A DNA stretch of 64,000 bases from Eledone cirrhosa. Taxonomy: Eukaryota. The notes below the pieces were generated by a model. That model ran no database searches and was not told the origin of the DNA. It was given only the letters and a program-made list of their open reading frames with translations. Both the position numbers and the translations under genes were made by a program. Below, piece after piece: positions 10,583 to 41,848 of the stretch (the stretch's first letter is position 1; each line of letters starts with the position of its first letter). The stretch lies in the NCBI GenBank assembly GCA_964016885.1, contig OZ024740.1, positions 223,200,001 to 223,264,000 on the forward strand. Reading direction: 5' to 3'.

Positions 10583-10583
<1 letters not shown>

Positions 10584-12864: not shown

Positions 12865-14220
<1,356 letters not shown>

Positions 14221-14221
14221 G

Positions 14222-14940
14222 TTAATAAGAGGAATTCCAACTTTGTCTGATTTACTCGTTTTATTTACAATCCTTTAAAATATATATAATGGTATTATAA
14301 TGAAATAGTATGATAGAATATTAAATTCTAAGTGTGAATTGAACAAGTACTTTCATGCTTTCGCAATCTTCAGGTTCATGATATGTGGTGACAGTCGAGT
14401 TTGCAATTTTCAACTGTAATGAGATGGGTAAATTTCCTACCTTTTATACATTTTATACAGAGAAAAGTGGCTCCAGAATGCAAAGCCCCGTAAACTGTAT
14501 TTCGACCAATCAGTGTGTAGTTTCACTGAATTACTACAGCTGATTGGTTAAAGCGTCACGGCTGGTTGAGCATGCTAACGACCAGTAGTCATATCCAACG
14601 TATCAATTGTTTTGCTTTTTTTTTAAATGATGAAAATAGCATTTTCTATTAATCATCACCATCAACATCACTTTTATTATTATTATTATTGTTGTTGTTG
14701 TTGTTGTTAGTGGTCGTGGTCATAGTGGTAGTGGAAGTAATACCCCTAGGCGTTATTATTGTTCATTTAGCTTGGGTTTGAATTTATCAATAAAATTCTT
14801 TTATTTGATTTTTCTCTTGATTTCACTTGGGCTGTGTAATTTGTAGAATGGGAATATTATAAATATTCCCTGACCACATGTTGCCAGGTGGCCGCTTAGG
14901 GGTATCTGACGGACATTTGGGTCTCTGATTTGTTGACGGT
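14222..14940 (-). mobile_element. Penelope-like element 3' arm: C-terminal part of GIY-YIG plus pseudo-LTR
   Basis: Reverse complement of 39027-39754 with only scattered substitutions. Encodes RQQIRDPNVRQIPLSGHL...FIDKFKPKLNEQ*. Confidence 0.93.
14340..14378 (-). ncRNA. Minimal type I hammerhead ribozyme in the PLE pseudo-LTR
   Basis: ugaac CUGAAGA u-ugc-gaaa-gca-u GAAAG-ua-CUU guuca, with palindromic stem III AAGUACUU. Confidence 0.78.
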
Positions 14941-17900
14941 CGAGCCCATAGCCGGGGCTAGCCCATAGCCGGGGCTAGCCCCTAGCCGGGTCGAGCCCAT
15001 AGCCGGGTTCGAGCCCCTATCCGGTTCGAGCCCATAGCCGGGTCGAGCCCATAGCCGGTTCGAGCCCATAGCCGGGGCGAGCCCCTAGCCGGGTCGAGCC
15101 TCTAGCCGGGTCGAGCCCATAGCCGGGTCGAGCCCATAGCCGGGTTGAGTCCAGAACGAGGCTTAGACCAGAACGAGGCTACTTCCAGAACGAGGCTACT
15201 TCCAGAACGAGGCTGAGTCCAGACTGAGGCTGAGCCCAGAACGAGGCTGAGCCCAGAACGAGGCTGAGCCCAGAACGAGGCTGAGTCCAGAACGAGGTTG
15301 AGTCCAGAACGAGGCTGAGTCCAGAACGAGACTGAGACCAGAACGAGGTTGAGTCCAGAACGAGGCTGAGTCCAGAACGAGGATGAGTCCAGAACGAAGC
15401 TGAGTCCAGAACGAGGCTGAGTCCAGAACGAGGCTGAGTCCAGAACGAGGCTGAGCCCAGAACGAGGCTGAGCCCAGGGCGAGGATGAGCTTAGAAGGAG
15501 GCTGAGCCCAGAACGAGGCTGAGTCTAGAACGAGGCTGAGTCTAGAACGAGGCTGAGTCTAGAACGAGGCTGAGTCCAGAACGAGACTGAGTCCAGAACG
15601 AGGCTGAGTCCAGAACGAGACTGAGTCCAGAACGAGGTTGAGTCCAGAATGAGGCTGATTCCAGAAGGAAGCTGAGTCCAGAACGAGGCTGAGTCCAGAA
15701 CGAGGCTGAGTCCAGAACGAGGCTGAGTCCAAAACGAGGCTGAATCCAGAACGAGGCTGAGTCCAGAACGAGGCTTACCCAGAACGAGGCTGAGTCCAGA
15801 ACGATGCTGAGTCCAGAACGATGATGAGTCCAGAACGGGGCTGTGTCCAGAACGAGACTGAGTCTAGAACGAGACTGAGTCCGAAACGAGGCTGAGTCCA
15901 GAACGAGGCTTAGTCCAGAACGAGGCTTAGTCCACAACGAGGCTTAGTCCACAACGAGGGTGAGTTCAGAACGAGGCTGAGTCCAGACCGAGGCTGAGTC
16001 CAGAACGAGGCTGAGTCCAGAACGAGGCTTAGACAGAACGAGGCTGAGTCCAGAACAAGGCTGAGAACATAATGAGGCTGAGTCCAGAACGAGGCTTAGT
16101 CCAGAACGAGGCTGATTCCACTACGAGGCTGAGTCCAGAACGAGGCTGAATCCAGAACGAGGCTTAGTCCAGAACGAGGCTGAGCCCAGAACGAGGCTAC
16201 ATCCAGAACGAGGCTGAGTCCAGAACGAGGCTGAGCCCAGAATGAGGCTGAGCCCAGAACAAGGCTAAGCTCAGAACGAGGCTGGGCCCAAACCAGGCTG
16301 AGTCCAGTACGAGGCTAAGCCCAGAACGAGGCTGAGCCCAGAACGAGGTTGAGCCCAGAACGAGGCTGAGTCCAGAATGAGGATGAGTCCAGAATGAGGC
16401 TGAGTCCAGAACGAGGCTGACTCCACTACGAGACTGAGGCACAGAACGAGGCTGATTCCAGAACGAGGCTGAATCCAGAACGAGGATGAGTCCCGAACGG
16501 AGCTGAGTCCAGAACGAGGCTGAGTCCAGTACGAGGCTAAGCCCAGAACGAGGCTTAGTCCAGAACGAGGCTTAGTCCACAACGAGGGTAAGTTCAGAAC
16601 GAGGCTGAGTCCAGACCGAGGCTGAGTCCAGAACGAGGCTGAGTCCAGAACGAGGCTTAGCCCAGAACGAGGCTGAGTCCAGAACAAGGCTGAGAACATA
16701 ATGAGGCTGAGTCCAGAACGAGGCTTAGTCCAGAACGAGGCTGATTCCACTACGAGGCTGAGTCCAGAACGAGGCTGAATCCAGAACGAGGCTTAGTCCA
16801 GAACGAGGCTGAGCCCAGAATGAGGCTACGTCCAGAACGAGGCTGAGTCCAGAACGAGGCTGAGCCCAGAATGAGGCTGAGCCCAGAACAAGGCTAAGCT
16901 CAGAACGAGGCTGGGCCCAAACCAGGCTGAGTCCAGTACGAGGCTGAGCCCAGTACGAGGCTGAGCCCAGAACGAGGCTGAGCCCAGAACGAGGCTCAGT
17001 CCAGAATGAGGCTGAGTCCAGAATGAGGCTGAGTCCAGAACGAGGCTGACTCCACTACGAGGCTGAGTCCCGAACGAGGCTGAGTCCAGAACGAGGCTGA
17101 ATCCAGAACGAGGATGAGTCCCGAACGAGGCTGAATCCAGAACGAGGCTTAGCCCAGAACGAGGCTGAGTCCAGAACGAGGCTGAGAACATAATGAGGCT
17201 GAGTCCACAACGAGGCTGAGTCCAGAACGAGGCTGACTCCACTACGAGGCTGAGTCCAGAACGAGGCTGAGTCCAGAACGAGGCTGAATCCAGAACGAGG
17301 CTTAGTCCAGAACGAGGCTGAGCCCAGAACGAGGCTGAGTCCAGAACGAGGCTGAGCCCAGAGTGAGGCTGAACCCAGAACAAGGCTAATCTCAGATCGA
17401 GGCTGAGCCCAAACGAGGCTGAGTCCAGTAGGAGGCTGAGTTCATAACGAGGCTGAGTCCAGAACGAGGCTGAGCCCAGAACGAGGCTAAGCCCAGAACG
17501 ATGCTATGTATAGAACGAGGCTGAGTCCAGAACGAGGCTGAGTTCAGAACGAGGCTGAGTCCAGAACGAGGCTGAGTCCAAAACGAGGCTGAATCCAGAA
17601 CGAGGCTGAGTCCAGAACGAGGCTTAGTCCAGAACGAGGCTGAGTCCAGAATGGGCTGAGTCCAGAACGATGCTGAGTCCAGAACGATGCTGAGTCCAGA
17701 ACGGGGCTGTGTCCAGAACGAGACTGAGTCCAGAACGAGACTGAGTCCGAAACGAGGCTGAGTCCGAAACGAGGCTGAGTCCAGAACGAGGCTTAGTCCA
17801 GAACGAGGCTTTGTCCAGAACGAGGGTGAGTTCAGAACGAGGCTGAGTCCAGAACGAGGCTGAGTCCGGCTCGAGCCCATAGCCGGGTCGAGCCCCTAGC

Positions 17901-20900
17901 CGGGTCGAGCCCATAGCCGGGTCGAGCCCATAGCCGGGTAGAGCCCCTAGCCGGGTCGAGCCAATAGCCGGGTTGAGCCCATAGCCGGGTCGAGCCCATA
18001 GTGGGGGAGCCCATAGCCGGTCGAGCTCATAGCCGTGTCGAGCCCATAGCCGGATCGAGCCCCTAGCCGGGTCGAGCCCATAGCCGGGTCGAGCCCATAG
18101 CCCGAGCCCATAGAACGAGGCTGAGCCCAGAACGAGGCTGAGCCCAGAACGAGGCTGAGTCTAGAACGAGGTTGAGTCCAGAACGAGGTTGAGTCCAGAA
18201 CGAGGCTGAGTCCAGTACGAGGCTGAGTTCAGAACGAGACTGAGTCCAGCACAATGCTGAGTCCACTACGAGGCTGAGTCCAGAACGAGGCTGAGTCCAG
18301 AACGAGGCTGAGCCCAGAACGAGGCTGAGCCCATAACGAGGCTGAGACCAGAACGAGGCAGAACCCGGAACGAGACTGAGTTCGGAACGAGGCTGAGCCC
18401 GGAACGAGGCTGAGTCCAGAATGAGGCTGATTCCAGAAGGAAGCTGAGTCCAGAATGAGGCTGAGTCCAAAACGAGGCTGAATCCAGAACGAGGCTGAGT
18501 CCAGAACGAGGCTGAGTCCAGAAAGGGCTGAGTCCAGAACGATGCTGAGTCCAGAACGAGACTGAGTCCAGAACGAGACTGAGTCCGAAACGAGGCTGAG
18601 TCCGAAACGAGGCTGAGTCCAGAACGAGGCTTAGTCCAGAACGAGGGTGAGATCAGAACGAGACTGAGTCCAGAACGAGACTGAGTCCAGAACGAGGATG
18701 AGTCCGGCTCAGCCCATAGCCGGGTCGAGCCCCTAGCCGGGTCGAGCCCATAGCTGGGTCGAGCCCATAGCCGGGTAGAGCCCCTAGCCGGGTCGAGCAA
18801 ATAGCCGGGTTGAGCCCATAGCCGGGTGGAGCCCATAGTGGGGCGAGCCCATAGCCGGGTCGAGCTCATAGCCGGGTCGAGCTCATAGCCGTGTCGAGCC
18901 CATAGCCGGGTCGAGCCCCTAGCCGGGTCGAGCCCATAGCCGGGTCGAGCCCATAGCCCGAGCCCATAGAACGAGGGTGAGCCCAGAACGAGGCTGAGCC
19001 CAGAACGAGGCTGACTCCAGAACGAGGTTGAGTCCAGAACGAGGCTGAGTCCAGTACGAGGCTGAGTTCAGAACGAGACTGAGTCCAGCACAATGCTGAG
19101 TCCACTTCGATGCTGAGTCCAGGCGAGGCTGAGAACATAATGAGGCTGAGTCCAGAACGAGGCTGAGTTCAGAACGAGGCTGAGTCCAGAACGAGGCTGA
19201 GTGCAGAACGAGGCTGAGTCCAGAACGAGGCTGAGTCCAGAACGAGGCTGAACCCAGAACAAAGCAGAGCCCAGAACGAGGCTGAGCCCAGAACGAGGCT
19301 GAGCCCAGAACGAGGCTGAGTCCGGATCGACCCCATAGCCGAGTCGAGCCCATAGCCGGGTCGAGCCTCTAGCCGTGTCGAGCCCATAGCCGGGGCGAGC
19401 CTCTAGCCGGGTCGAGCCCCTAGCCGGGTCGCGCCCATAGTCGGGTCGAGCCCCTAGCCGGGTCGAGCCTCTAGCCGGGTCGAGCCCATGACCGGGTCGA
19501 GCCCCTAGCCGGATCGAGCCCATAGCTGGATCGAGCCCATAGTGGGTCGAGCCCATAGCCGGGTTGAGCCCATAGCCGGGTCAAGCCCCTAGCCGGGTCG
19601 AGCCCATAGCCGGTTGAGCCCCTAGCCGGGTCGAGCCAATATACTGGTCGAACCCCTAGCCGGGTCGAGCCCATAGCCGGGTCGAGCCCCTAGCCGGGTC
19701 GAGCCCATAGCCGCGTCGAGCCCATAGCCCGAGCCCATAGAAAGAGGCTGAGCCCAGAACGAGGCTGAGCCCAGAACGAGGCTGAGTCTAGAACGATGTT
19801 GAGTCCAGAACGAGGTTGAGTCCAGAACGAGGCTGAGTCCAGTACGAGGCTGAGTTCAGAACGAGACAGAGTCCAGCACAATGATGAGTCCACTTCGATG
19901 ATGAGTCCAGAACGAGGCTGAGCCCAGAACGAGGCAGAGCCCAGAACAAGGCAGAACCCGGAACGAGACTGGGCCCGGAACGAGGCTGAGCCCGGAACGA
20001 GGCTGAGCCCCGAACGAGGCTGAGTCAGGAACGAGGCTGAGTCCACTACGAGGCTGAGTCCAGAACGAGGCTGACTCCAGAACGAGGCTGATTCCAGAAC
20101 GAGGCTGAGTCCAGAACGAGGCTGAGTCCAGAACGAGGCTGAGCCCAGAACGAGGCTGAGGCCAGAACGAGGCTTAGTCTAGAACGAGGCTTAGTCCAGA
20201 ACGAGGCTGAGTCCAGAACGAGGCTGAGAACATAATGTGGCTGAGTCCAGAACGAGGCTGAGCCCAGAACGAGGCTGAATCCAGAACGAGGCTGAGTCCA
20301 GAACGAGGCTGAGCCCAAACGAGGATGAGTCCAGTAGGAGGCTGAGTCCATAACGAGGCTGAGTCCAGAACGAGGCTGAGCCCAGAACGAGGCTGAGCCC
20401 AGAACGAGGCTGAGCCCAGAACGAGGCTGACTCCACTACGAGGCGGAGTCCAGAACGAAGCTGAGTCCAGAACGAGGCTGAATCCAGAACGAGGCTTAGT
20501 CCAGAACGAGGCTGCGCCCAGAACGAGGCTGAGTCCAGAACGAGGCTGAGCCCAGAATGAGGCTGAGCCCAGAACAAGGCTAAGCTCAGAACGAGCTTGG
20601 GCCCAAACCAGGCTGAGTCCAGTACGAGGCTAAGCCCAGAACGAGGCTGAGCCCAGAACGAGGTTGAGTCCAGAATGAGGCTGAGTTCAGAACGAGGCTG
20701 ACTCCACTACGAGACTGAGTCCAGAACGAGGCTGAGTCCAGAACGAGGCTGAATCCAGAACGGGGATGAGTCCCGAACGAGGCTGAGTCCAGAACGAGGC
20801 TTTGCCCAGAACGAGGCTGAGTCCAGAACGAGGCTGAGAACATAATGAGGATGAGTCCAAAACGAGGCTGAGTCCAGAACGAGGCTGAGTCCAGAACGAG

Positions 20901-23900
20901 GCTGAATCCAGAACGAGGCTTAGTCCAGAACGAGGCTGAGCCCAGAACGAGGCTGAGTCCAGAACGAGGCTGAGTCCAGAACGAGGCTGAGCCCAGAATG
21001 AGGCTGAGCCCAGAACAAGGCTAAGCTCAGAACGAGCTTGGGCCCAAACCAGGCTGAGTCCAGTACGAGGCTAAGCCCAGAACGAGGCTGAGCCCAGAAC
21101 GAGTTTGAGTCCAGAATGAGGCTGAGTTCAGAACGAGGCTGACTCCACTACGAGACTGAGTCCAGAACGAGGCTGAGTCCAGAACGAGGCTGAATCCAGA
21201 ACGGGGATGAGTCCCGAACGAGGCTGAGTCCAGAACGAGGCTTTGCCCAGAACGAGGCTGAGTCCAGAACGAGGCTGAGAACATAATGAGGATGAGTCCA
21301 AAACGAGGCTGAGTCCAGAACGAGGCTGAGTCCAGAACGAGGCTGAATCCAGAACGAGGCTTAGTCCAGAACGAGGCTGAGCCCAGAACGAGGCTGAGTC
21401 CAGAACGAGGCTGAGTCCAGAACGAGGCTGAGCCCAGAATGAGGCTGAGCCCAGAACAAGGCTAATCTCAGAACGAGGCTGAGTCCACTACGAGACTGAG
21501 TCCAGAACGAGGCTGAGTCCAGAACGAGGCTGAATCCAGAACGGGGATGAGTCCCGAACGAGGCTGAGTCCAGAACGAGGCTTTGCCCAGAACGAGGCTG
21601 AGTCCAGAACGAGGCTGAGAACATAATGAGGCTGAGTCCAGAACGAGGCTGAGTCCAGAACGAGGCTGAATCCAGAACGAGGCTTAGTCCAGAACGAGGC
21701 TGAGCCCAGAACGAGGCTGAGTCCAGAACGAGGCTGAGTCCAGAACGAGGCTGAGCCCAGAATGAGGCTGAGCCCAGAACAAGGCTAATCTCAGAACGAG
21801 GCTGAGTCCAGTAGGAGGCTAAGTCCACAACGAGGCTGAGCCCAGAACGAGGCTGAGCCCAGAACGAGGCTGAGCCCAGAACGAGGCTGAGCCCAGAACG
21901 AGGCTGAGCCCAGAACGAGGCTAAGCCCAGAACGATGCTGAGTCCAGAACGAGGCTGAGTCCAGAACAAGGCTGAGAACACAATGAGGCTTAGTCTAGAA
22001 CGAGACATAGTCCAGAACGATGCTGAGTCCAGAACGAGGCTGAGTCCAGAATGATGCTGAGTCCAGAACGATGCTGAGTCCAGAACGAGGCTGAGTCCGG
22101 ATCGAGCCCATAGCCGAGTCGAGCCCATAGCCGGGTCGAGCCTCTAGCCGTGTCGAGCCCATAGCCGGGGCGAGCCCCTAGCCGGGTCGAGCCCCTAGCC
22201 GGGTCGCGCCCATAGCCGGGTCGAGCCCCTAGCCGGGTCGAGCCTCTAGCCGGGTCGAGCACATGACCGGGTCGAGCCCCTAGCCGGATCGAGCCCATAG
22301 CTGGATCAAGCTCATAGTGGGTCGAGCCCATAGCCGGGTCGAGACCATAGCCGGGTCGAGCACCTAGCCGGGGCGAGCCCCTAGCCGGGTCGAGCCCATA
22401 GCCGGGTCGAGCCCATAGCCGGTTCGAGCCCATAGCCGGGTCGAGCCCATAGCTGGATCGAGCCACTAGCTGGGTCGAGCCCATAGCCGGGTCGAGGCCC
22501 TAGCCGTGTCGAGCCCCTAGCCGGGTCGAGCCCATAGCCGAGTCGAGCCCATAACCGGGTCGAGCCCATAACCGGGTCGAGCCCATAGCCGGGTCGAGCC
22601 CATAGCCGATGCAGAGTCCAGAACGAGGCTGAGTCCAAAACGAGGCTGATTTCAGAACGAGGTTGAGTACTGAACGAGGCCGAGTCCAGAACGAGGCTGA
22701 GCCCAGAACGAGGCTGAGTCCAGTACGAGGCTGAGTCCAGAACGAGGCTGAGTCCAGAACGAGGCTGAGTCCAGAACGAGGATGAGTTCAGAACGAGGCT
22801 GAGTCCAGAACGAGGCTGAGTTCAGAACGAGGCTGAGTCCAGAACGAGGCTGAACCCAGAACGAGGCAGAGCCCACAACGAGGCTGAACCCAGAACGAGG
22901 CTGAGCCCAGAACGAGGCTGAGTCCGGATCGAGCCCATAGCCGAGTCGAGCCCATAGCCGGGTCGAGCCTCTAGCCGTGTCGAACCCATAGCCGGGGCGA
23001 GCCCCTAGCCGGGTCACGCCCATAGCCGGGTCGAGCCCCTAGCCGGGTCGAGCCTCTAGCCGGGTCGAGCCCATAGCCGGGTCGAGCCCCTGTCTGGATC
23101 GAGCCCATAGCCGAGTCGAGCCCATGCCGGGTCGAGCCCATAGCCGGGTTGAGCCCATAGCCGGTCGAGCCCATAGCTGGGTCGAGCCCCTAGCCGGGTC
23201 GAGCCCCTAGCCGGGTTGAGCCCATTATGGGTCGAGCCCATAGCCGGGTTGAGCCCATAGCCGGGTCGAGCCCCTAGCCGTGTCGAGCCCATAGCCGGGT
23301 CAAGCCCCTAGCCGGGTCGAGCCCATAGCCGGGTTGAGCCCCTAGCCGGGTCGAGCCAATATACTGGTCGAACCCCTAGCCGTGTCGAGCCCCTAGCCGG
23401 GTCGAGCCCATAGCCGGGTCGAGCCCCTAGTCGAGTCGAGCCCATAACCGGGTCGAGCCCATAGCCGGGTCGAGCCCATAGCCGATGCTGAGTCCAGAAC
23501 GAGGCTGAGTCCAAAACGAGGCTGATTTCAGAACGAGGTTGAGTACTGAACGAGGCCGAGTCCAGAACGAGGCTGAGCCCTGAACGAGGCTGAGCCCAGA
23601 ACGAGGCTGAGTCCAGTACGAGGCTGAGTCCAGAACGAGGCTGAGTCCAGAACGAGGCTGAGTCCAGAACGAGGCTGAGTCCAGAACGAGGCTGAGTTCA
23701 GAACGAGGCTGAGTACAGAACGAGGCTGAGTTCAGAACGAGGCTGAGTCCAGAACGAGGCTGAGTCCAGAACGAGGCTGAACCCAGAACAAGGCAGAGCC
23801 CACAACGAGGCTGAACCCAGAACGAGGCTGAGCCCAGAACGAGGCTGAGTCCGGATCGAGCCCATAGCCGAGTCGAGCCCATAGCCGGGTCGAGCCTCTA

Positions 23901-26900
23901 GCCGTGTCGAACCCATAGCCGGGGCGAGCCCCTAGCCGGGTCACGCCCATAGCCGGGTCGAGCCCCTAGCCGGGTCGAGCCTCTAGCCGGGTCGAGCCCA
24001 TAGCCGGGTCGAGCCCCTAGCTGGATCGAGCCCATAGCCGAGTCGAGCCCATGCCGGGTCGAGCCCATAGCCGGGTTGAGCCCATAGCCGGTCGAGCCCA
24101 TAGCCGGGTCGAGCCCCTAGCCGTGTCGAGCCCCTAGCCGGGTCGAGCCCCTAGCCGGGTTGAGCCCATTATGGGTCGAGCCCATAGCCGGGTTGAGCCC
24201 ATAGCCGGGTCGAGCCCCTAGCCGTGTCGAGCCCATAGCCGGGTCAAGCCCCTAGCCGGGTCGAGCCCATAGCCGGGTTGAGCCCCTAGCCGGGTCGAGC
24301 CAATATACTGGTCGAACCCCTAGCCGGGTCGAGCCCATAGCCGGGTCGAGCCCCTAGCCAGGTCGAGCCCATAGCCGGGTCGAGCCCATAGCCCGAGCAC
24401 ATAGAACGAGGCTGAGCCCAGAACGAGGCTGTGCCCAGAACGAGACTGAGTCTAGAACGAGGTTGAGTCCAGAACGAGGTTGAGTCCAGAACGAGGCTGA
24501 GTCCAGTACGAGGCTGAGTTCAGAACGAGACTGAGTCCAGCACAATGCTGAGTCCACTTCGATGCTGAGTCCAGAACGAGGCTGAGGCCAGAATGAGGCT
24601 GAGCCCAGAACGAGGCTGAGCCCAGAACGAGGCAGAACCCGGAACGAGACTGAGTCCGGAACGAGGCTGAGCCCAGAACGAGGCTGAGTCCGGAACGAGG
24701 CTGAGTCCACTACGAGGCTGAGTCCAGAACGAGACTGAGACCAGAACGAGGTTGAGTCCAGAACGAGGATGAGTCCAGAACGAAGCTGAGTCCAGAACAA
24801 GGCTGAGTCCAGAACGAGGCTGAGTCCGGCTCGAGCCCATAGCCGGGTCGAGCCCATAGCCGAGTCGAGCCCATAGCCGGGACGAGCCCATAGCCGGGTA
24901 GAGCCCCTAGCCGGGTCGAGCCAATAGCCGGGTTGAGCCCATAGCCGGGTCGTGCCCATAGTGGGGCAAGCCCATAGCCTGGTCGAGCCCATAGTCGTGT
25001 CGAGCCCATAGCCGGATCGAGCCCCTAGCCGGGTCGAGCCCATAGCCCGAGCCCATAGAACGAGGCTGAGCCCAGAACGAGGCTGAGCCCAGAACGAGGC
25101 TGAGTCTAGAACGAGGTTGAGTCCAGAACGAGGTTGAGTCCAGAACGAGGTTGAGTCCAGTACGAGGCTGAGTTCAGAACGAGACTGAGTCCAGCACAAT
25201 GCTGAGTCCACTTCGATGCTGAGTCCAGAACGAGGTTGAGCCCAGAACGAGGCTGAGCCCAGAACGAGGCAGAACACGGAACGAGACTGAGCCCGGAACG
25301 AGGCTTAGCCCGGAACGAGGCTGAGCCCAGAACGAGGCTGAGTCCGGAACGAGGCTGAGTCCACTACGAGGCTGAGTCCAGAACGAGGCTGAGTCCAGAA
25401 CGAGGCTGAGACCAGAACGAGGCTGAGTCCAGAACGAGGCTGAGTCCAGAACAAGGCTGAGTCCAGAACGAGGCTGAGCCCAGAACGAGTCCGAGCCCAG
25501 AACGAGGCCGAGCCTAGAACGAGGCCGAGCCCAGAACGAGGCCGAGTCCAGAACGAGGTTGAGTTCAGAACGAGGTTGAGTCCAGAACGAGGCTGAGTCC
25601 AGAACGAGGCTGAGCACAGAACGAGGCTGAGCCCAGAACGAGGCTGAGCCCTGAACGAGGATGAGCCCAGAACGAGGCTGAGTCCAGTACGAGGCTGAGT
25701 CCAGAACGATGCTGAGTCCAGAACGAGGCTAAGTCCAGAACGATGCTGAGTCCAGAACGAGGCTGAGTCCAGAACGAGGCTTAGCCCAGAACGAGGATGA
25801 GTCCAGAACGAGGCTGAGTCCAGAACGAGGCTGAGTCCAGAACGAAGCTGAGTCCAGAACGAGGCTGAGCGCAGAACAAGGCTGAGCCCAGAACGAGGCT
25901 GAGCCCAAACGAGGCTGAGTCCAGTACGAGGCTGGGCCCAGAACGAGGCTGAGTCCAGAATGAGGCTGAGTCCAGAATGAGGGTGAGTCCAGAACGAGGC
26001 TGACTCCACTACGAGGCTGAGTCCAGAACGAGGCTGAGTCCAGAACGAGGCTGAATCCAGAACGAGGATGAGTCCCGAACGAGGCTGAGTCAAGAACGAG
26101 GCTTTGCCCAGAACGAGGCTGAGTCTAGAACGAGGCTGAGAACATAATGAGGCTGAGTTCAGAACGAGGCTGAGTCCAGAACGAGGCTGACTCCACTACG
26201 AGGCTGAGTCCAGAACGAGGCTGAATCCAGAACGAGGCTTAGTCCAGAACGAGGCTGAGCCCAGAACGAGGCTGAGTCCAGAACGAGGCTGAGCCCAGAG
26301 TGAGGCTGAGCCCAGAACGAGGCTGAGTCCAGAACGAGGCTGACTCCACTACGAGGCTGAGTCCAGAACGAGGCTGAGTCCGGATCGAGCCCATAGCCGA
26401 GTCGAGCCCATAGCCGGGTCGAGCCTCTAGCCGTGTCGAGCCCATAGTCGGGGCGAGCCCCTAGCCGGGTCGCGCCCATAGCCGGGTCGAGCCCCTAGCC
26501 GAATCGAGCCTCTAGCCGGGTCGAGCCCCTAGCCGGGTCTAGCCCCTAGCCGGATCGAGCCCATAGCCGAGTCGAGCCCATGCCGGGTCGAGCCCATAGC
26601 CGGGTTGAGCCCATAGCCGGTCGAGCCCATAGCCGGGTCGAGCCCCTAGCCGTGTCGAGCCCCTAGCCGGTACGAGCCCCTAGCGGGGTCGAGCCCATGG
26701 CCGGGTTGAGCCCCTATCCGGGTCGAGCCCATAACCGGGTCGAGCCCATAGCCGATGCTGAGTCCAGAACGAGGCTGAGTCCAGAACCAGGCTCAGTCCA
26801 GAACGAAGCTGAGTCCAGAGCGAGGCTGAGTCCAGTACGAGACTGAGTCCAGAACAAGGCTGAGTACAAAACGAGGCTGAGCCCAGAACGAGGTTGAGCC

Positions 26901-29900: not shown

Positions 29901-32900
29901 GAGGCTAAGCCCAGAACGAGGCTGAGCCCAGAACGAGGTTGAGCCCAGAACGAGGCCGAGTCCAGAATGAGGCTGAGTCCAGAACGAGGCTGAGTCAAGA
30001 ACGAGGCTGAGTCCGGTTCGAGTCCATAGCCGGGTCGAGACCATAGCCGGGTCGAGCACCTAGTCGGGGCGAGCCCCTAGCCGGGTCGAGCCCATAGCCG
30101 GGTCGAGCCCATAGCCGGTTCGAGCCCATAGCCGGGTCGAGCCCATAGCTGGATCGAGCCACTAGCTGGGTCGAGCCCATAGCCGGGTCGAGGCCCTAGC
30201 CGTGTCGAGCCCCTAGCCGGGTCGAGCCCATAGCCGGGTCGAGCCCCTAGTCGAGTCGAGCCCATAACCGGGTCGAGCCCATAGCCGGGTCGAGCCCATA
30301 GCCGATGCTGAGTCCAGAACGAGGCTGAGTCCAGAACGAGGCTGAGTCCAAAACGAGGCTGAGTTCAGAACGAGGTTGAGTCCTGAACGAGGCCGAGTCC
30401 AGAACGAGGCTGAGCCCTGAACGAGGCTGAGCCCAGAACGAGGCTAAGCCCAGAACGAGGCTGAGTCCAGTACGAGGCTGAGTCCATAACGAGGCTGAGT
30501 CCAGAACGAGGCTGAACCCAGAACAAGGCAGAGCCCAGAACGAGGCTGAGTCCAGAACGAGGCTGAGTCCAGAACGAGGCTGAGTCCGGATCGAGCCCAT
30601 AGCCGAGTCGAGCCCATAGCCGGGTCGAGCCTCTAACCGTGTCGAGCCCATAGCCGGGGCGAGCCCCTAGCCGGGTCGCGCCCATAGCCGGGTCGAGCCC
30701 CTAGCCGGGTCGAGCCTCTAGCCGGGGCGAGCCCCTAGCTGGATCGAGCCCATAGCCCAATCGAGCCCATGCCGGGTCGAGCCCATAGCCGGGTTGAGCC
30801 CATAGCCGGTCGAGCCCATAGCCGGGTCGAGCCCCTAGCCGTTTCGAGCCCCTAGCCGGTTCGAGCCCATAGTGGGTCGAGCCCATAGCCGGGTTGAGCC
30901 CATAAACGGGTCGAGCCCCTAGCCGTGTCGAGCCCATAGCCGTGTCAAGCCCCTAGCCGGGTCGAGCCCATAGCCGGGTTGAGCCCCTAGCCGGGTCGAG
31001 CCAATATACTGGTCGAACCCCTAGCCGGGTCGAGCCCATAGCCGGGTCGAGCCCTAGCCGGGTCGAGCCCATAGCGGGGTCGAGCCCATAGCCCGAGCAC
31101 ATAGAACGAGGCTGAGCCCAGAACGAGGCTGAGCCCAGAACGAGACTGAGTCTAGAACGAGGTTGAGTCCAGAACGAGGTTGAGTTCAGAACGAGACTGA
31201 GTCCAGCGCAATGCTGAGTCCTCTTCGATGCTGAGTCCAGAACGAGGCTGAGTCCACAACGAGACTGAGCCCAGAACGAGGCTGAGCCCAGAACGAGACA
31301 GAACCCGGAACGAGACTGAGCCCGGAACGAGGCTGAGCCCGGAACGACGTTGAGCCCAGAACGAGGCTGAGTTCGGAACGAGGCTGAGTCCACTACGAGG
31401 CTGAGTCCAGAACGAGGCTGAGACCAGAACGAGGTTGAGTCCAGAACGAGGATGATTCCAGAACGAAGCTGAGTCCAGAACAAGGCTGAGTCCAGAACGA
31501 GGCTGAGTCCGGCTCTAGCCCATAGCCGGGTCGAGCCCATAACCGGGTCGAGCCCATAGCCGGGACGAGCCCATAGCCGGGTAGAGCCCCTAGCCGGGTC
31601 GAGCCAATAGCCGGGTTGAGCCCATAGCCGGGTCGTGCCCATAGTGGGGCGAGCCCATAGCCGGGTCGAGCCCATAGCCGTGTCGAGCCCATAGCCGGGT
31701 CGAGCCCCTAGCCGGGTCGAGCCCATAGCCCGAGCCCATAGAACGAGGCTGAGCCCAGAACGAGGCTGAGTCCAGAACGAGGCTGAGTCCAGAACAAGGC
31801 TGAGCCCAGAACGAGGCTGAGCCCAGAACGAGGCAGAACCCGGAACGAGACTGAGTCCAGAACGAGGCTGAGCCCAGAACGAGGCTGAGTCCACTACGAG
31901 GCTGAGTCCACTACGAAGCTGAGTCCAGAACGAGGCTGAGTCAAGAACGAGGCTGAGACCAGAACGAGGCTGAGTACAGAACGAGGCTGAGTCCAGAACG
32001 AGGCTGAGTCCAGAACGAGGCTGAGCCCAGAATGAGGCTGAGCCCAGAACAAGGCTAATCTCAGAACGAGGCTGAGCCCAAACGAGGCTGAGTCCAGTAG
32101 GAGGCTGAGTCCAGAACGAGGCTGAGCCCAGAACGAGGCTGAGCCCAGAACGAGGCTGAGCCCAGAACGAGGCTAAGCCCAGAACGATGCTGTGTCCAGA
32201 ACGAGGCTTAAGTCCAGAACGAGGCTGAGTTCAGAACGAGGCTGAGTCCAGAACGAGGCTGAGTCAAGAACGAGGCTGAGTCCGGTTCGAGTCCATAGCC
32301 GGGTCGAGACCATAGCCGGGTCGAGCACCTATCCGGGGCGAGCCCCTAGCCGGGTCGAGCCCATAGCCGGGTCGAGCCCATAGCCGGTTCGAGCCCATAG
32401 CCGGGTCGAGCCCATAGCTGGATCGAGCCACTAGCTGGGTCGAGCCCATAGCCGGGTCGAGGCCCTAGCCGTGTCGAGCCCCTAGCCGGTTCGAGCCCAT
32501 AGCCGGGTAGAGCCCCTAGTCGAGTCGAGCCCATAACCGGGTCGAGCCCATAGCAGGGTCGAGCCCATAGCCGATGCTGAGTCCAGAATGAGGCTGAGTC
32601 CAAAACGAGGCTGAGTTCAGAACGAGGTTGAGTCCTGAACGAGGCCGAGTCCAGAACGAGGCTGAGCCCTGAACGAGGCTGAGCCAAGAACGAGGCTGAG
32701 CCCAAACGAGGCTGAGTCCAGTAGGAGGCTGAGTCCATAACGAGGCTGAGTCCAGAACGGGGCTGAGCCCAGAACGAGGCTGAGCCCAGAACGAGGCTGA
32801 GCCCAGAACGAGGCTAAGCCCAGAACGATGCTGAGTCCAGAACGAGGCTGAGTCCAGAACGAGGCTGAGTTCAGAACGAGGCTGAGTCCAGAACGAGGCT

Positions 32901-35900
32901 GAGTCAAGAACGAGGCTGAGTCCGGTTCGAGTCCATAGCCGGGTCGAGCCCATAGCCGGGTCGAGCACCTAGCCGGGGCGAGCCCCTAGCCGGGTCGAGC
33001 CCCTAGCCGGGTCGAGCCCATAGACGGTTCAAGCCCATAGCCGGGTCGAGCGCATAGCTGGATCGAGCCACTAGCTGGGTCGAGCCCATAGCCGAGTCGA
33101 GCCCATAGCCGGGTCGAGCCTCTAGCCGTGTCGAGCCCATAGCCGGGGCGAGCCCATAGCCGGGTCGCGCCCATAGCCGTGTCGAGCCCCTAGCCGGGTC
33201 GAGCCTCTGGTCGGGTCGAGCCCATAGCCGGGTTGAGCCCCTAGCCGGATCGAGCCCATAGCCGAGTCGAGCCCATGCCGGGTCGAGCCCATAGCCGGGT
33301 TGAGCCCATAGCCGGTCGAGCCCATAGCCGTGTCGAGCCCCGAGCCGGGTCGAGCCCCTAGCCGGGTCGAGCCCATAGTGGGTCGAGCCCATAGCCGGGT
33401 TGAGCCCATAGCCGGGTCGAGCCCCTAGCCGTGTCGAGCCCATAGCCGGGTCAAGCCCCTAGCCGGGTCGAGCCCATAGCCGGGTTGAGCCGCTAGCCGG
33501 GTCGAGCCAATATACTGGTCGAACCCCTAACCGGGTCGAGACCATAGCCGGGTCGAGCCTCTAGCCGGGTCGAGCCCTTGGCCGGGTCGAGCCCATAGCC
33601 GCGTCGAGCCCATAGCCGGGTCGTGCCCATGGCCGGGTTGAGCCCCTAGCCGGGTCGAGCCCATAACCGGGTCGAGCCCATAGCCGATGCTGAGTCCAGA
33701 ACGAGGCTGAGTCCAGACCGAGACTGAGTCCAGAACGAGGCTGAGTCCAGAACGAGGCTTAGCCCAGAACGAGGCTGAGTCCAGAACAAGGCTGAGAACA
33801 TAATGAGGCTGAGTCCAGAACGAGGCTGAGTCCAGAACGAGGCTGACTCCACTACGTGGCTGAGTCCAGAACGAGGCTGAGTCCAGAACGAGGCTGAATC
33901 CAGAACGAGGCTTAGTCCAGAACGAGGATGAGCCCAGAACGAGGCTGAGTCCAGAACGAGGCTGAGTCCAGAACGAGGCTGAGCCCTGAACGAGGCTGAG
34001 CCAAGAACGAGGCTGAGCCCAAACGAGGCTGAGTCCAGTAGGAGGCTGAGTCCATAACGAGGCTGAGTCCAGAACGAGGCTGAGCCCAGAACGAGGCTGA
34101 GCCCAGAACGAGGCTGAGCCCAGAACGAGGCTAAGCCCAGAACGATGCTGAGTCCAGAACGAGGCTGAGTTCAGAACGAGGCTGAGTCCAGAACGAGGCT
34201 GAGTCAAGAACGAGGCTGAGTCCGGTTCGAGTCCATAGCCGGGTCGAGCCCATAGCCGGGTCGAGCACCTAGCAGGGGCGAGCCCCTAGCCGGGTCGAGC
34301 CCCTAGCCGGGTCGAGCCCATAGACGGTTCGAGCCCATAGCCGGGTGGAGCGCATAGCTGGATCGAGCCACTAGCTGGGTCGAGCCCATAGCCGAGTCGA
34401 GCCCATAGCCGGGTCGAGCCTCTAGCCGTGTCGAGCCCATAGCCGGGGCGAGCCCATAGCCGGGTCGCGCCCATAGCCGGGTCGAGCCCCTAGCCGGGTC
34501 GAGCCTCTGGTCGGGTCGAGCCCATAGCGGGGTCGAGCCCCTAGCCGGATCGAGCCCATAGCCGAGAGGAGCTGATGCCGGGTCGAGCCCATAGCCGGGT
34601 TGAGCCCATAGCCGGTCGAGCCCATAGCCGTGTCGAGCCCCGAGCCGGGTCGAGCCCCTATACGGGTCGAGCCCATAGTGGGTCGAGCCCATAGCCGGGT
34701 TGAGCCCATAGCCGGGTCGAGCCCCTAGCCGTGTCGAGCCCATAGCCGGGTCAAGCCCCTAGCCGGGTCGAGCCCATAGCCAGGTTGAGCCGCTAGCCGG
34801 GTCGAGCCAATATACTAGTCGAACCCCTAACCGGGTCGAGCCCATAGCCGGGTCGAGCCCCTAGCCGGGTCGAGCCCTTAGCCGGGTCGAGCCCATAGCC
34901 GCGTCGAGCCCATAGCCGGGTCGAGCCCATGGCCGGGTTGAGCCCCTAGCCGGGTCGAGCCCATAACCGGGTCGAGCCCATAGCCGATGCTGAGTCCAGA
35001 ACGAGGCTGAGTCCAGACCGAGACTGAGTCCAGAACGAGGCTGAGTCCAGAACGAGGCTTAGCCCAGAACGAGGCTGAGTCCAGAACAAGGCTGAGAACA
35101 TAATGAGGCTGAGTCCAGAACGAGGCTGAGTCCAGAACGAGGCTGACTCCACTACGTGGCTGAGTCCAGAACGAGGCTGAATCCAGAACGAGGCTTAGTC
35201 CAGAACGAGGATGAGCCCAGAACGAGGCTGAGTCCAGAACGAGGCTGAGTCCAGAACGAGGCTGAGCCCAGAATGAGGCTGAGCCCAGAACAAGGCTAAG
35301 CTCAGAACGAGGCTGGGCCCAAACCAGGCTGAGTCCAGTACGAGGCTAAGCCCAGAACGAGGCTGAGCCCAGAACGAGGTTGAGCCCAGAACGAGGCTGA
35401 GTCCAGAATGAGGCTGAGTCCAGAACGAGGCTGAGTCAAGAACGAGGCTGAGTCCGGTTCGAGTCCATAGCCGGGTCGAGACCATAGCCGGGTCGAGCAC
35501 CTAGCCGGGGCGAGCCCCTAGCCGGGTCGAGCCCATAGCCGGGTCGAGCCCATAGCCGGTTCGAGCCCATAGCCGGGTCGAGCCCATAGCTGGATCGAGC
35601 CACTAGCTGGGTCGAGCCCATAGCCGGGTCGAGGCCCTAGCCGTGTCGAGCCCCTAGCCGGGTCGAGCCCATAGCCGGGTCGAGCCCCTAGTCGAGTCGA
35701 GCCCATAACCGGGTCGAGCCCATAGCCGGGTCGAGCCCATAGCCGATGCTGAGTCCAGAACGAGGCTGAGTCCAAAACGAGGCTGAGTTCAGAACGAGGT
35801 TGAGTCCTGAACGAGGCCGAGTCCAGAACGAGGCTGAGCCCTGAACGTGGCTGAGCCCAGAACGAGGCTAAGTCCAGAACGATGCTGAGTCCAGTACGAG

Positions 35901-37963
35901 GCTGAGTCCAGATCGAGGCTGAGTCCAGAACGAGGCTGAACCCAGAACAAGGCAGAGCCCAGAACGAGGCTGAGCCCAGAACGAGGCTGAGCCCAGAACG
36001 AGGCTGAGTCCGGATCGAGCCCATAGCCGAGTCGAGCCCATAGCCGGGTCGAGCCTCTAACCGTGTCGAGCCCATAGCCGGGGCGAGTCCCTGCCGGGTC
36101 GCGCCCATAGCCGGGTCGAGCCCCTATACGGGTCGAGCCTCTAGCCGGGTCGAGCCCATAGCCGGGTCGAGCCCCTAGCTGGATCGAGCCCATAGCCGAG
36201 TCGAGCCCATGCCGGGTCGAGCCCATAGCCGGGTTGAGCGCATAGCCGGTCGAGCCCATAGCCAGGTCGAGCCCCTAGCCGTTTCGAGCCCCTAGCCGGG
36301 TCGAGCCCATAGTGGGTCGAGCCCATAGCCGGGTTGAGCCCATAAACGGGTCGAGCCCCTAGCCGTGTCGAGCCCATAGCCGGGTCAAGTCCCTAGCCGG
36401 GTCGAGCCCATAGCCGGGTTGAGCCCCTAGCCGGGTCGAGCCAATATACTGGTCGAACCCCTAGCCGGGTCGAGCCCATAGCCGGGCCGAGCCCTAGCCG
36501 CGTCGAGCCCATAGCGGGGTCGAGCCCATAGCCCGAGCACATAGAACGAGGCTGAGCCCAGAACGAGGCTGAGCCCAGAACGAGACTGAGTCTAGAACGA
36601 GGTTGAGTCCAGTACGAGGCTGAGTTCAGAACGAGACTGAGTCCAGCACAATGCTGAGTCCTCTTCGATGCTGAGTCCAGAACGAGGCTGAGTCCAGAAC
36701 GAGGTTGAGCCCAGAACGAGGCTGAGCCCAGAACGAGGCAGAACCCGGAACGAGACGTAGCCCGGAACGACGCTGAGCCCAGAACGAGGCTGAGTCCGGA
36801 ACGAGGCTGAGTCCACTACGAGGCTGAGTCCAGAACGAGGCTGAGACCAGAACGAGGTTGAGTCCAGAACGAGGATGAGTCCAGAACGAAGCTGAGTCCA
36901 GAACAAGGCTGAGTCCAGAACGAGGCTGAGTCCGGCTCGAGCCCATAGCCGGGTCGAGCCCATAGCCGGGTCGAGCCCATAGCCGGGACGAGCCCATAGC
37001 CGGGTAGAGACCCTAGCCGGGTCGAGCCAATAGCCGGGTTGAGCCCATAGCCGGGTCGTGCCCATAGTGGGGCGAGCCCATAGCCGGGTCGAGCCCATAG
37101 CCGTGTCGAGCCCATAGCCGGGTCGAGACCCTAGCCGGGTCGAGCCCATAGCCCGATCCCATAGAACGAGGCTGAGCCCAGAACGAGGCTGAGCCCAGAA
37201 CGAGGCTGAGTCTAGAACGAGTTTGAGTCCAGAACGAGGTTGAGTCCAGAACGAGGCTGAGTCCAGTACGAGGCTAAGTTCAGAACGAGACTGAGTCCAG
37301 CACAATGCTGAGTCCACTTCGATGCTGAGTCCAGAACGAGGCTGAGTCCAGAACGAGGCTGAGTCCAGAACGAGGCTGAGCCCAGAACGAGGCTGAGCCC
37401 AGAACGAGGCAGAACCCGGAACGAGACTGAGCCCGGAACGAGGCTGAGCCCAGAACGAGGCTGAGTCCGGAACGAGGCTGAGTCCACTACGAGGCTGAGT
37501 CCAGAACGAGACTGAGTCCAGAACGAGGCTGAGTCCAGAACGAGGCTGAGTCCAGAACGAGGCTGAGCCCAGAACGAGTCCGAGCCCAGAACGAGGCCGA
37601 GCCCAGAACGAGGCCGAGTCCAGAACGAGGCTGAGCCCAAACGAGGCTGTCCAGTACGAGGCTGAGTCCAGAACGAGGCTGAGTCCAGAATGAGGCTGAC
37701 TCCAGAACGAGGCTGACTCCAGAACGAGGCTCACTCCACTACGAGGCTGAGTCCAGAACAAGGCTGAGTCCAGAACGAGGCTGAATCCAGAACGAGGCTG
37801 ATTCCAGAACGAGGCTGAGTCCAGAACGAGGCTGAGCCCAGAACGAGGCTGAGTCCAGAACGAGGCTGAGTCCAGAACGAGGCTGAGTCCAGAACGAGGC
37901 TGAGTTCAGAACGAGGCTGAGTTCAGAACGAGGCTGAGTTCAGAACGAGGCTGTATCCAGAAC
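14941..37963. repeat. ~23 kb composite satellite of two 17-bp monomers: A = GAGCCCATAGCCGGGTC and B = GAGTCCAGAACGAGGCT
   Basis: About 1,350 monomers (length divided by 17), all in one orientation. About 22 alternating A and B blocks, with recurrent variant motifs marking higher-order repeats. Confidence 0.97.
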
Positions 37964-38503
37964 GTTGTTGTATAGGTATTTTTATAGCCCGCCGTATGCC
38001 TTTTTCTATAAGTAGAGATGGGTATTTTTGTTTGAGCAAAAATTCTCTTAGTTCTGTTAGGCGTTTGTACCTGGTATTCGTATCTTCTACAATGGTACAA
38101 ATTCTTCTGGCTAGGCTGTATGTGATGTTGCGTTTTGTATGAAGTGGATGGCACGACTTAAAATTCAGATATTGATGGGTGTCTGTGTGTTTATAATATA
38201 TATCCGTGGTAATGGTGGTGTTGTTTTTGATTATAATTTGGTCCTACTCATCTCTTATGTGAATTGGAGAGATGGGTGTAGGTTATTCAGGAGGATATTG
38301 AACTCATCCAGAGTATCTAGAGATTCTGTCCAGATGATGAAACAGTCGTCAAGGTATCTCTTCCAAGATTTTTCAATGTACTTTCTAAAGTCAGTACTAT
38401 ATTTTTCCTCTATTGCTTGGTAGAGTTGTTGTTCTAAGTATCCCATTACAGAGTTCGCGTAAACGGGAGCAAACTTCGTTCCCATCGCTGTGCCTCTAAT
38501 TTG
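37964..38503 (-). pseudogene. Penelope-like RT fragment (motif B through thumb) running into the satellite
   Basis: QIRGTAMGTKFAPVYAN, WKRYLDDCFIIW, LNNLHPSLQFT*, then DIYYKHTDTHQYLNFKSCHP...LLKQKYPSLLIEKGIRRAIKIPIQQ. Confidence 0.92.
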
Positions 38504-39211
38504 CTCAAACAAAAATTCCCATCTCTACTTATAGAAAATGGCATACAGCGGGCTATAAAAATACCTATACAACAACTTAGAACAACCCAAGGAAGAAGAA
38601 ACCAAGAACTGGTCATACCATTTATAATGACACACAACCCATGTCACCAGAATATCTTCAACACTGCCAAAGCAAACCTACCGATCATTGCTCAAAGTAA
38701 TGAATTAAAAGGCTTAATCACAGATCGATCTTTGACTCTTAGTAAAAGACAGCCAAAAAATTTGAAGCAATTGCTAACAAAAGCAAAGTTTGACCTTAAC
38801 AACAAACACCAATCATTCACTGTATCTAAATGCAATGATAATCGATGCGGCACATGTCAATCCATACACACCGGTCAATATATGAAAACAAAAACTGGAA
38901 AAATATTCCCAAATGCAAATATGAACTGCAAAAGCAGAAATCTAATTTACTGCATTAAATGCCCGAATTGTGAAGAACTATATGTCGGTCAAACTGGAAA
39001 TGCATTATCGGAACGTTCACGGGTACACCGTCAACAAATCAGAGACCCAAATGTCCGTCAGATACCCCTAAGCGGCCACCTGGCAACATGTGGTCAGGGA
39101 ATATTTATAATATTCCCATTCTACAAATTACACAGCCCAAGTGAAATCAAGAGAAAGATCAAAGAAAAGAATTTTATTGATAAATTCAAACCCAAGCTAA
39201 ATGAACAATAA
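38501..39211 (+). pseudogene. PLE ORF C-terminus with Cys-rich linker and GIY-YIG endonuclease (open frame, no true start)
   Basis: KCNDNRCGTC, NCKSRNLIYCIKCPNCEELYVGQTG, R..HR, RKIKE..FI..FKPKLN. Confidence 0.9.
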
Positions 39212-39597
39212 TAACGCCTAGGGGTATTACTTCCACTACCACTATGACCACGACCACTAACAACAACAACAACAACAACAACAACAATAATAATAATAAT
39301 AAAAGTGATGTTGATGGTGATGATTAATAGAAAATGCTATTTTCATCATTTTAAAAAAAAGCAAAACGATTGATACGTTGGATATGACTATTGGTCGTTA
39401 TCATGCTCAACCAGCCGTGACGCTTAAACCAATCAGCTGTAGTAATTCAGTGAAACTACACACTGATTGGTCGAAATACAGTTTACAGGGCTTTGCATTC
39501 TGGAGCCACATTTCTCTGTATAAAATGTATAAAAGGTAGGAAATTTACCCATCTCAATACAGTTGAAAATTGCAAACTCGACTGTCACCACATACCA

Positions 39598-39636
39598 TGA
39601 ACCTGAAGATTGCGAAAGCATGAAAGTACTTGTTCA
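39598..39636 (+). ncRNA. Minimal type I hammerhead ribozyme in the PLE pseudo-LTR
   Basis: TGAAC CTGAAGA TTGCGAAAGCAT GAAAG TA CTT GTTCA; identical to the reverse complement of 14340-14378. Confidence 0.78.
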
Positions 39637-39834
39637 ATTAACAGTTAGAATTTAATATTCTATCATACTATTTCATTATAATACCATTATATATATTTTA
39701 AAGGATTGTAAATAAAACGAGTAAATCAGACAAAGTTGGAATTCCTCTTATTAATAATCTTCTATACACAATCATCCATACCCGTGTATATTTACCTATC
39801 TATATCTATATATATATATATATATATATACATA

Positions 39835-39971
<137 letters not shown>

Positions 39972-40130
39972 ATACTTTGGGAGGGTCATGTTGCCAATAA
40001 GAAACACACGCACCAGTTGATTCACTTCAATTTATTATATATTTATAAATTTATAAATTTACAAATTTACAAACTTATAAATTTCTGGTTGGTTGGTTGG
40101 TTCCAGAACCAGATAGTTATTTATATATAT

Positions 40131-40175
40131 AGTCATAGTCCTTTCGTCACACACTCTGTGACCTCTTCAGTGACT
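40131..40175 (-). ncRNA. Type I hammerhead ribozyme
   Basis: aguca CUGAAGA g-gucac-agagugu-gugac GAAAG-ga-CUA ugacu. Stem I is 5 bp; stem II is 5 bp with one unpaired G. Confidence 0.78.
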
Positions 40176-40472
40176 GGGGATTCCTTTCTTCGTTTCTGTG
40201 CCTTTCCTTTCCTCTATCCTACGCCATTTTGTTTCTGTGTGTGTTGTGTGCTCAGTTTGCGCATGCGCCACATCCGGGTGTCTGTGTGTGTTTGTGTTCA
40301 TTTTTCTATTTTTCTATTTATATTTTTCTATTTGTTTATTTATTTATTGTTGGTTGGTTGTTTGTTCTATGTGTGTGTGTGTTTTCATTTTGTCCTGTGT
40401 GTGTTTTCATTTTATGTGTGTTTTCAATTGTAAGTTGTTTGTTCTATGTGTGTGTGTGTTTTCATTTTGTCC

Positions 40473-40996
40473 TTAATTGTAAGTTGTGATGTTGCTGTTC
40501 CACTCATATTTTCTATTTAATTTTGGTTTTAATTCTTTTATGCTTACTGCCTCTGTAATTTGCCTAAACATTGCGTCTTTTCTGTGTGTGGATTCTATTT
40601 TTATTTCTATGCTCTCTAATCTACCCCTGTGTTCTATCTTAGCATGTTGGTAGAGCACAGATGATTCTTTATTATCTTGGAGGTCTCGCCAGTGTTCATT
40701 TATTCGTTCCCCTATACTACGAGCTGTCTCACCTATGTACACTATAATTTTGTTTCTACATTGTCCTTCAGTACATCTTATGCTATACACTACATTTCTA
40801 GTTTTACAGTTAATATGGGGGCTTAATTTACAGGTTATACATTTCTTATCTATACATGAGGGTCTTTGGAACGGGTATGTCTTGCTAATAAGTGTTTTTA
40901 CGGAGGTACCAGGTCTTTCTACTATCTTAATATTGAGATTATATTTATTTAGGGCCCTTCTAAATTTGTAGGCTAGTTCGCCTCTAGGGGTTGTAT
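40473..40996 (-). pseudogene. PLE GIY-YIG endonuclease fragment
   Basis: CIDKKCITC, NCKTRNVVYSIRC, VYIGETARSIGERINEH, RQITEAVSIKELKPKLNRKYEW. Confidence 0.9.
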
Positions 40997-41800: not shown

Positions 41801-41848
41801 TTATTATGAAAATAAAACAAAGAAGCCTTCAATACATCAAAAGTCTTT

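Follow-up and report, generated by a model that had tools for sequence, protein, structure and literature searches.

A 23-kb satellite array inside an inverted Penelope-like element of Eledone cirrhosa, probably placed there by break repair

Introduction

The de novo D18Z1 alpha-satellite insertion at human 15q26 comprises 50–300 kb, with a 2.8-kb deletion, a 4-nt ambiguity and no target site duplication (TSD) (PMC8662618). Here we describe a locus of Eledone cirrhosa in which 23 kb of a 17-bp satellite lie inside a Penelope-like element (PLE). The stretch analysed, called the window below and used for all coordinates, covers 64,000 nucleotides (assembly GCA_964016885.1, contig OZ024740.1, positions 223,200,001 to 223,264,000, forward strand). 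The two cases would have in common the arrival of a large, already formed higher-order array at another position, a repeat-rich target and break repair as the inferred route (PMC8662618). Unlike the human insertion, for which donor and parents are known, the one in E. cirrhosa has a young inverted retroelement as its target and a 17-bp monomer, and its donor and empty allele are unseen.

The Rsp-like insertions into Drosophila 1.688 clusters also brought a satellite to new loci, via microhomologies and with loss of a little target sequence; microhomology-mediated end joining (MMEJ), fork stalling and template switching/microhomology-mediated break-induced replication (FoSTeS/MMBIR) or extrachromosomal circular DNA (eccDNA) have been proposed for their spread (PMC7403614). 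In that system the junctions recur at many loci and the arrays are short, whereas here there is one junction pair and 23 kb. Among PLEs, Pen1 and Pen3a of Adineta vaga resemble our locus in holding foreign DNA between element parts, with an inverted pseudo-long terminal repeat (pseudo-LTR), an optional tail and microhomology deletions. Their captured pieces are 0.9–4 kb long, non-repetitive, located between pseudo-LTRs and associated with a TSD (PMC3846280), unlike the 23 kb of satellite that here replace sequence inside the open reading frame (ORF). The Neptune and Nematis insertions share with ours the C-terminal GIY-YIG domain, the knuckle, the inverted 5'-truncated copy, the 30–40-bp tail, the microsatellite target and a hammerhead-like motif; the embedded array is the only difference (PMC8557442). 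Satellites derived from transposable elements (TEs) and retrozyme arrays also tie a tandem array to a mobile element, with a monomer that comes from or travels with the element (PMC12628747; bioRxiv 10.64898/2026.07.22.740005), unlike the present satellite, which is unrelated to its host and uncoupled from it across organisms. In the literature searched, which lies outside subscription papers and supplements, we found no description of this satellite, of a large satellite embedded in a PLE, or of capture of satellite RNA by a reverse transcriptase (RT), and no match to the monomer words in the text.

A satellite array in place of part of the endonuclease region

The interval 14222–39797 is a PLE insertion of the Neptune/Nematis type, head-to-head and tail-out, with (TA)n as its target. 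From left to right it reads (TA)n, tail-less end, left arm, head-to-head centre, right arm, a tail of about 40 bp and (TA)n. Its arms were compared by self-BLAST of the window with the satellite array masked. In the left arm, 23,023 bp of satellite stand where the equivalent of 38577–39026 is expected, and this segment encodes the linker, the CX4CX2C knuckle and the LIY...YVG core of the endonuclease. The satellite meets the left arm at 14940/14941 and 37963/37964, with junction homologies of 1 nt (C) and 3 nt (ACC) and no TSD. The features of the unit are as follows.

12865–14221, no strand: left target flank, imperfect (TA)n, 1.36 kb (Tandem Repeats Finder (TRF) and sequence).
14222–14940, minus: distal piece of the left arm, with the last 60 endonuclease codons (C-terminal), stop, 3' untranslated region (UTR)/pseudo-LTR and tail-less end (reverse complement of 39027–39754; tblastn to P0004 residues 670–729).
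14340–14378, minus: minimal hammerhead-like motif, left copy (pattern match and stem I/II fold; no Rfam gathering hit).
14941–37963, plus: satellite array, 23,023 bp in one orientation, with 829 A-type (GAGTCCAGAACGAGGCT) and 517 B-type (GAGCCCATAGCCGGGTC) 17-mers (TRF and monomer parsing).
14941–15200, plus: left terminal section of the array, holding variants, and a B-to-A joint, that the rest of it lacks (monomer parsing).
37964–38040, minus: left arm, 77 bp of RT thumb, also in the right arm (3 substitutions against 38500–38576).
38041–38503, minus: left arm, C-terminal RT part (QIRGTAMG...RYLDD), 5'-truncated, with one stop and a 19-nt loss near 38233 (RVT_1, E=7e-4, below the curated cut-off).
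38500–38503, no strand: head-to-head inversion centre, 4-nt overlap (self-BLAST and sequence).
38500–39757, plus: right arm, with thumb, linker, CX4CX2C, GIY-YIG endonuclease (stop at 39211) and 3' UTR/pseudo-LTR (domain search and protein alignment).
38577–39026, plus: 450 bp without a left-arm counterpart (self-BLAST and arm alignment).
39598–39636, plus: minimal hammerhead-like motif, right copy (pattern match and stem fold).
39758–39797, plus: tail of about 40 bp, at this end only, then (TA)n to 39967 (sequence and TRF).

The PLE pieces match P0004 residues 332–729 in order, and the homologues bear both RVT_1 and GIY-YIG. The 19 nt missing from the left RT piece, which also has its stop in frame, are found in other copies of the family. 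In the right arm, the ORF contains a Pfam GIY-YIG domain (PF01541) above cut-off at residues 148–234; 41 longer homologues were found among 834 candidates, with a top identity of 62% and about 50% for bivalve-project proteins. Residues C111, C116 and C119 of the linker knuckle and C154, C157, H176 and H193 of the endonuclease CCHH set are invariant in all eight aligned proteins. A linker knuckle of the form CX2-5CxxC is given as a mark of Neptune and Nematis that Penelope/Poseidon lack (PMC8557442), so membership in the latter clade was ruled out; the long linker (about 85 aa) would favour Neptune over Nematis. The unit shows the inverted 5'-truncated copy and the one-sided tail of 30–40 bp expected of an endonuclease-positive (EN+) PLE. 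Such a copy, with a tail at one end and a (TA)n target, is a described form of PLE insertion (PMC8557442), and two start sites account for such tails in vitro (PMC11167929).

A sequence-only reading of the window had already reported a satellite in place of 450 bp at these coordinates, the loss of the linker, Cys cluster and GIY/YIG motifs, junction homologies of 1 and 3 nt without a TSD, about a dozen substitutions between arms over some 720 bp, and the absence of either monomer from the PLE; our alignments bear out all of these. Other parts of its description need amendment. The retroelement is a PLE, but its knuckle places it with Neptune/Nematis instead of Penelope/Poseidon, and the unit extends to 39797. 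The head-to-head copy taken as intact does carry the segment missing on the left, but it lacks the RT core, being itself truncated at the 5' end to 1.26 kb. As for the hammerhead in the pseudo-LTR, the core pattern and stems are present in both arms, but the fold is no better than that of shuffled sequences (z of -0.42 and -0.22), and an Rfam search of the window gave no match at gathering score, hammerhead-like motifs included.

Composition and age of the array

The array is composed of 44 alternating A and B blocks, the alternation occurring in units of 0.4–3 kb with fixed joints. There are 314 distinct monomer variants, 187 of type A and 127 of type B; the two monomers agree at 10 of 17 positions in register, and both contain CpG. 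The 20 stereotyped A-to-B joints have a common 11-nt spacer and fall into three sequence types. The orientation count is 423 forward and 0 reverse, and the longest exact repeat inside the array is 361 bp. Both ends bear short runs of a variant that is rare or absent in the rest of the array. The best matches of the monomers within the element are 11/17 and 12/17, against 11–13 for shuffled sequences, and none were found elsewhere in the window; with likeness at shuffle level, a TE-derived satellite was ruled out. A coding role was also rejected, the open minus-strand frames (up to 437 codons; plus strand, 60) being due to stop-free 17-mers. The satellite patterns gave no match in metagenome contigs, prokaryote genomes or viral contigs, which carries little weight because these are not animal collections.

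The mean pairwise difference between monomers is 15%. In windows of 10 monomers, the best duplicates have a median of 96.5%, compared with about 90% after shuffling, which indicates that monomer order is inherited. About 14.5 kb of the array is without an earlier copy at 98%. Divided into 170-bp tiles (n=135), the array has 41 tiles with a copy at 98% or better, 42 with none at 95% and 17 with none at 92%; only 0.2–2.8% of tiles are expected below 95% at a divergence of 1.6–2.5%, against the 42 of 135 observed. Segments centred on the 20 joints form a branching tree whose lineages are interleaved along the array. Five of their 190 pairs lie within 2%, the median difference is 6.7% within types and 12.8% between types, and there are 15 clusters at 2% and 10 at 3.5%. 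Multi-edit variants found twice or more, in fixed order, number 48 of 126, and this ordered recurrence points to DNA duplication, not to repeated copying of a short template.

These patterns indicate that the array is for the most part older than the element, provided that it does not mutate many times faster. Compared with the arms, its genealogy appears several-fold deeper in time. A minimum of about 10 kb would have arrived at once, and up to about one third of the array may have grown in place later.

Element and satellite in public sequencing runs

Of 24 public runs listed, 20 hold part of 37900–39800 (top share, 51% of words), and four were compared in detail: X1 (organism A), X4, X6 (organism C) and X24. 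No RNA run is listed among those containing the sequence, which does not count as evidence. Depths are summed per bin and are not copy numbers. Of the 640 loose ends, 42 joints and 354 variant rows, the comparison covers 24, 15 and 40, respectively, and joints at a likeness below 95 may stem from repeats. The depths of the satellite bin and the element bin 38028–38091 are 47,663 and 35,106 in X1, 24.8 and 141 in X4, and 0.56 and 38,709 in X6. In organism C the satellite signal is close to nil while the element abounds, and over organisms A, B and C the abundance of one does not follow that of the other. X24 has no satellite reads, and is uninformative on this point because it is a restriction-site-associated (RAD-seq) run.

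X1 holds a variant string that is also present in the array at 14941–37963. At 30–37 bp into the element from the junction, it has a depth of 49.8 in three contigs, none with the window's letter at 38001. Among the loose ends listed (24 of 640, X1), no satellite one falls at 39027 or 38576. An abundant element–satellite chimera should have shown in this run; a single-copy one need not. Rare forms tend to drop out of contigs.

In X1 the family ends at 39756 in 26 contigs and at 39794 in 11, with TA next in each. Depth in this run reaches 526,000–722,000 over the last 190 bp of the element (39564–39755) against 12,000–71,000 in the body, about 15-fold; the family is strongly 5'-truncated and most copies are short. 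The deep 3' segment also implies that short ends bearing the hammerhead are very numerous in organism A. Nine of the 15 joints listed are plain internal skips of 86–419 nt in other copies, all from X6, several of them with 1–27 filler letters.

Comparison of the two arms

The inverted distal pair, 14940–14222 and 39027–39754, differs by 13 substitutions over 719 aligned sites and one 9-nt indel in an AAC run; the thumb pair, 38040–37964 and 38500–38576, differs by 3 over 77. Together, 16 of 796 sites differ (2.0%). Among the variant rows listed, the family letter is that of the left arm at seven of the 13 distal differences, which are thus right-specific; five have no row and are read as left-specific, and one is ambiguous. 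In the 77-bp overlap, two are left-specific and one right-specific. The arms also have non-majority letters in common: at 39439 the family has T in 92% of X1 depth and 49% of X6 depth, and at 39648–39649 other letters account for 49% of X1 depth and 84–95% of X24 reads. With similar loads of arm-specific changes and common non-majority letters, the arms look like one event. The data fit, without proving, a single insertion of an age of about 1% per arm.

Origin of the embedded array

We consider it probable that a pre-existing array segment was inserted as DNA during repair of a break in the left arm, presumably as a one-off event. Inverted arms and (TA)n tracts may be fragile sites. Both arms would be products of a single insertion, and the break may have been favoured by the 1.26-kb inverted arms, 459 bp apart, or by the adjacent 1.36-kb (TA)n. 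It would have been mended, during resolution of the insertion or afterwards, with a ready-made segment of an older array from elsewhere, via microhomologies of 1–5 nt. Such repair would be DNA-templated, by template-switch synthesis or by end joining of a linear or circular fragment.

The junctions show what a break-repair insertion predicts: a target deletion, no TSD and homologies within 0–7 nt. A summed homology of at least 4 nt has P=0.047 under random joins. A 7-nt word over the right junction is found again at 39012–39018, 8 nt from the other breakpoint (P=0.010, 20,000 random joins), which is what cutting both junctions from a single unbroken arm would give. If real, this word is suggestive of a 439-bp microhomology deletion combined with a satellite insertion replacing 8 bp, with homologies of 5 and 3 nt. 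Multi-switch junctions of this kind are typical of repair synthesis. We also count for break repair the D18Z1 precedent (PMC8662618) and the internal skips in X6 together with the microhomology deletions that disable PLE copies elsewhere (PMC3846280). The canonical form of the unit, an inverted 5'-truncated copy with one tail in (TA)n (PMC8557442), both end types of which recur in the family, is counted likewise, as are the likeness of the arms, the greater age of the array, the ordered recurrence of its variants and the satellite and element depths in the runs. An eccDNA signature, in which the first and last partial monomers complete one, was considered; they are nearly in register but of different monomer types (about 3/17 by chance), and this was not counted.

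Several observations weigh against this reading. The age argument assumes that the satellite does not mutate 5–10 times faster than the element, and monomer gain and loss also depress tile identity. With the family-majority letter at 39017 in the left arm, the 7-nt word shrinks to 5 nt (P=0.11). RT jumps leave short microhomology too, so it does not separate them from repair, and the colinearity of the two left pieces is, taken alone, weak evidence. No read or contig across either junction was seen in the public runs, and at most diagnostic sites the X1 contigs carry letters other than the window's, so that these data do not confirm the locus. The flanks are not shown to be one former locus, the long interspersed nuclear element (LINE) cut at 12864 having no continuation on the right, and P0043 residues upstream of 297 match nothing in the window. 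A donor array, an empty allele, and other arrays with their flanks were not seen. The scope of the run comparison given above, and the possible repeat origin of low-likeness joints, weigh here as well.

RT capture at insertion is an unlikely alternative. Priming would have taken place at the left (TA)n end; after copying 719 nt from the 3' side, the RT would have switched to a long transcript of the satellite (or a read-through RNA that already contained it), followed it for many kilobases, and returned 450 nt upstream. PLEs of Adineta hold host spacers of 0.9–1.5 kb and an intron-bearing NRPS (non-ribosomal peptide synthetase) module between pseudo-LTRs, and their inserts between RT and endonuclease are ascribed to template jumps (PMC3846280); in vitro, a PLE protein cuts both strands, extends them and needs no homology for priming (PMC11167929). 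The single array orientation and the short homologies fit as well. Such capture would, however, have to bring in at least about 10 kb at once and make a 23-kb cDNA in a strongly 5'-truncated family, as its roughly 15-fold 3' depth excess attests, whereas the largest EN+ capture found cited is 4 kb and retrotransposon limits are about 10 kb (PMC6431247). We likewise regard as improbable a wider role of the element as a satellite vehicle, in which the RT or integration complex would have carried a ready-made array between two primed ends, and would do so repeatedly in the genome; at more than 10 kb, the cargo would be several times the size of the PLE captures found reported. A short RNA template reiterated in a telomerase-like way, or a seed of a few monomers expanded in place, is very improbable and largely refuted. 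PLE RTs are sister to TERT (PMC8557442), the array-end runs are rare or absent elsewhere in the array, and 41 of 135 tiles have a 98% copy; against this stand the two monomer types with 187 and 127 variants, their ordered recurrence and branching genealogy, three joint lineages a median of 12.8% apart between types, and the absence of either monomer from the element.

Two further explanations leave the 23 kb where they are or bring two loci together. A resident array could have received two separate insertions, one at each end: on the left a copy truncated at its 5' side, on the right one inverted at its 5' side, with the 77-bp overlap. The 450-bp deletion would then be a coincidence. A 5'-inverted copy with such an overlap is like L1 twin priming. 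No movement of 23 kb is required, the tail-out ends make strand agreement automatic, and colinearity is likely because most copies are short. We nevertheless hold two insertions to be improbable: neither junction retains a (TA)n remnant, the arms have common non-majority letters and similar mutation loads, the 7-nt word links both junctions, and a head-to-head unit with one tail is the normal single-event form (PMC8557442). There is also only a small chance that two loci were joined through satellite, by inter-array exchange or by the assembler. No spanning reads were seen and the continuity of the flanks is not shown, as such a join would allow; yet long reads would easily span the longest exact repeat of the array (361 bp), the lineages of joints are interleaved over its length, and both ends match one element lineage.

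The sequence-only reading had left three routes open. Its patching of a break with satellite DNA fits best. The later expansion of a short seed is contradicted by the deep, ordered genealogy, as is the telomerase-like half of its RT route, of which the jump to a long satellite RNA is kept as unlikely. Youth holds for the arms, 2.0% apart, but not for the array, which appears internally far older. With the uncoupling across A, B and C and no abundant junction in the runs compared, the retroelement-seeded satellite system that it had raised is not supported.

Neighbouring elements in the window

A second tail-out inverted GIY-YIG element, of another family, occupies 39968–41195 between (TA)n tracts, with an ORF at 41021–40473 (minus), a well-formed hammerhead-like motif near 40170 and a tail of about 55 bp at the right end only. 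Further on, at 41805–42900, comes an AT-rich unit that is again flanked by (TA)n tracts; it bears a hammerhead-like motif near 41887 (minus) and may be a non-coding PLE end. A third-family PLE (RVT_1 and GIY-YIG), near full-length and frameshifted, lies at 45009–47357 (minus). To the left, LINE ORF2 (10262–12864, minus), with a 52% match named from Octopus sinensis, is cut at the (TA)n edge right after its endonuclease domain; its 3' end folds back in a 548-bp palindrome (97%) that ends at another (TA)n tract. More palindromes or inverted duplications tied to (TA)n are found at 6453–9950, 48559–48918 and 51562–51789, and fold-back events seem common in the window. A Gypsy-type RT/RNase H fragment (2472–4067, plus) and a LINE RT with a PHD finger (49134–50192, plus) are also present.

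Implications

As a one-off repair, the locus would be a clean, datable case of a large satellite block colonizing a new site. With the right arm preserving a copy of the target as it was before the insertion, and the divergence between the arms setting an upper limit on the age, donor, breakpoints and later growth in place can be read. Break repair would reveal no new enzyme activity. If the element were found to flank many arrays, it would provide a retroelement route for satellite spread, and the cargo limit of EN+ PLEs would rise several-fold.

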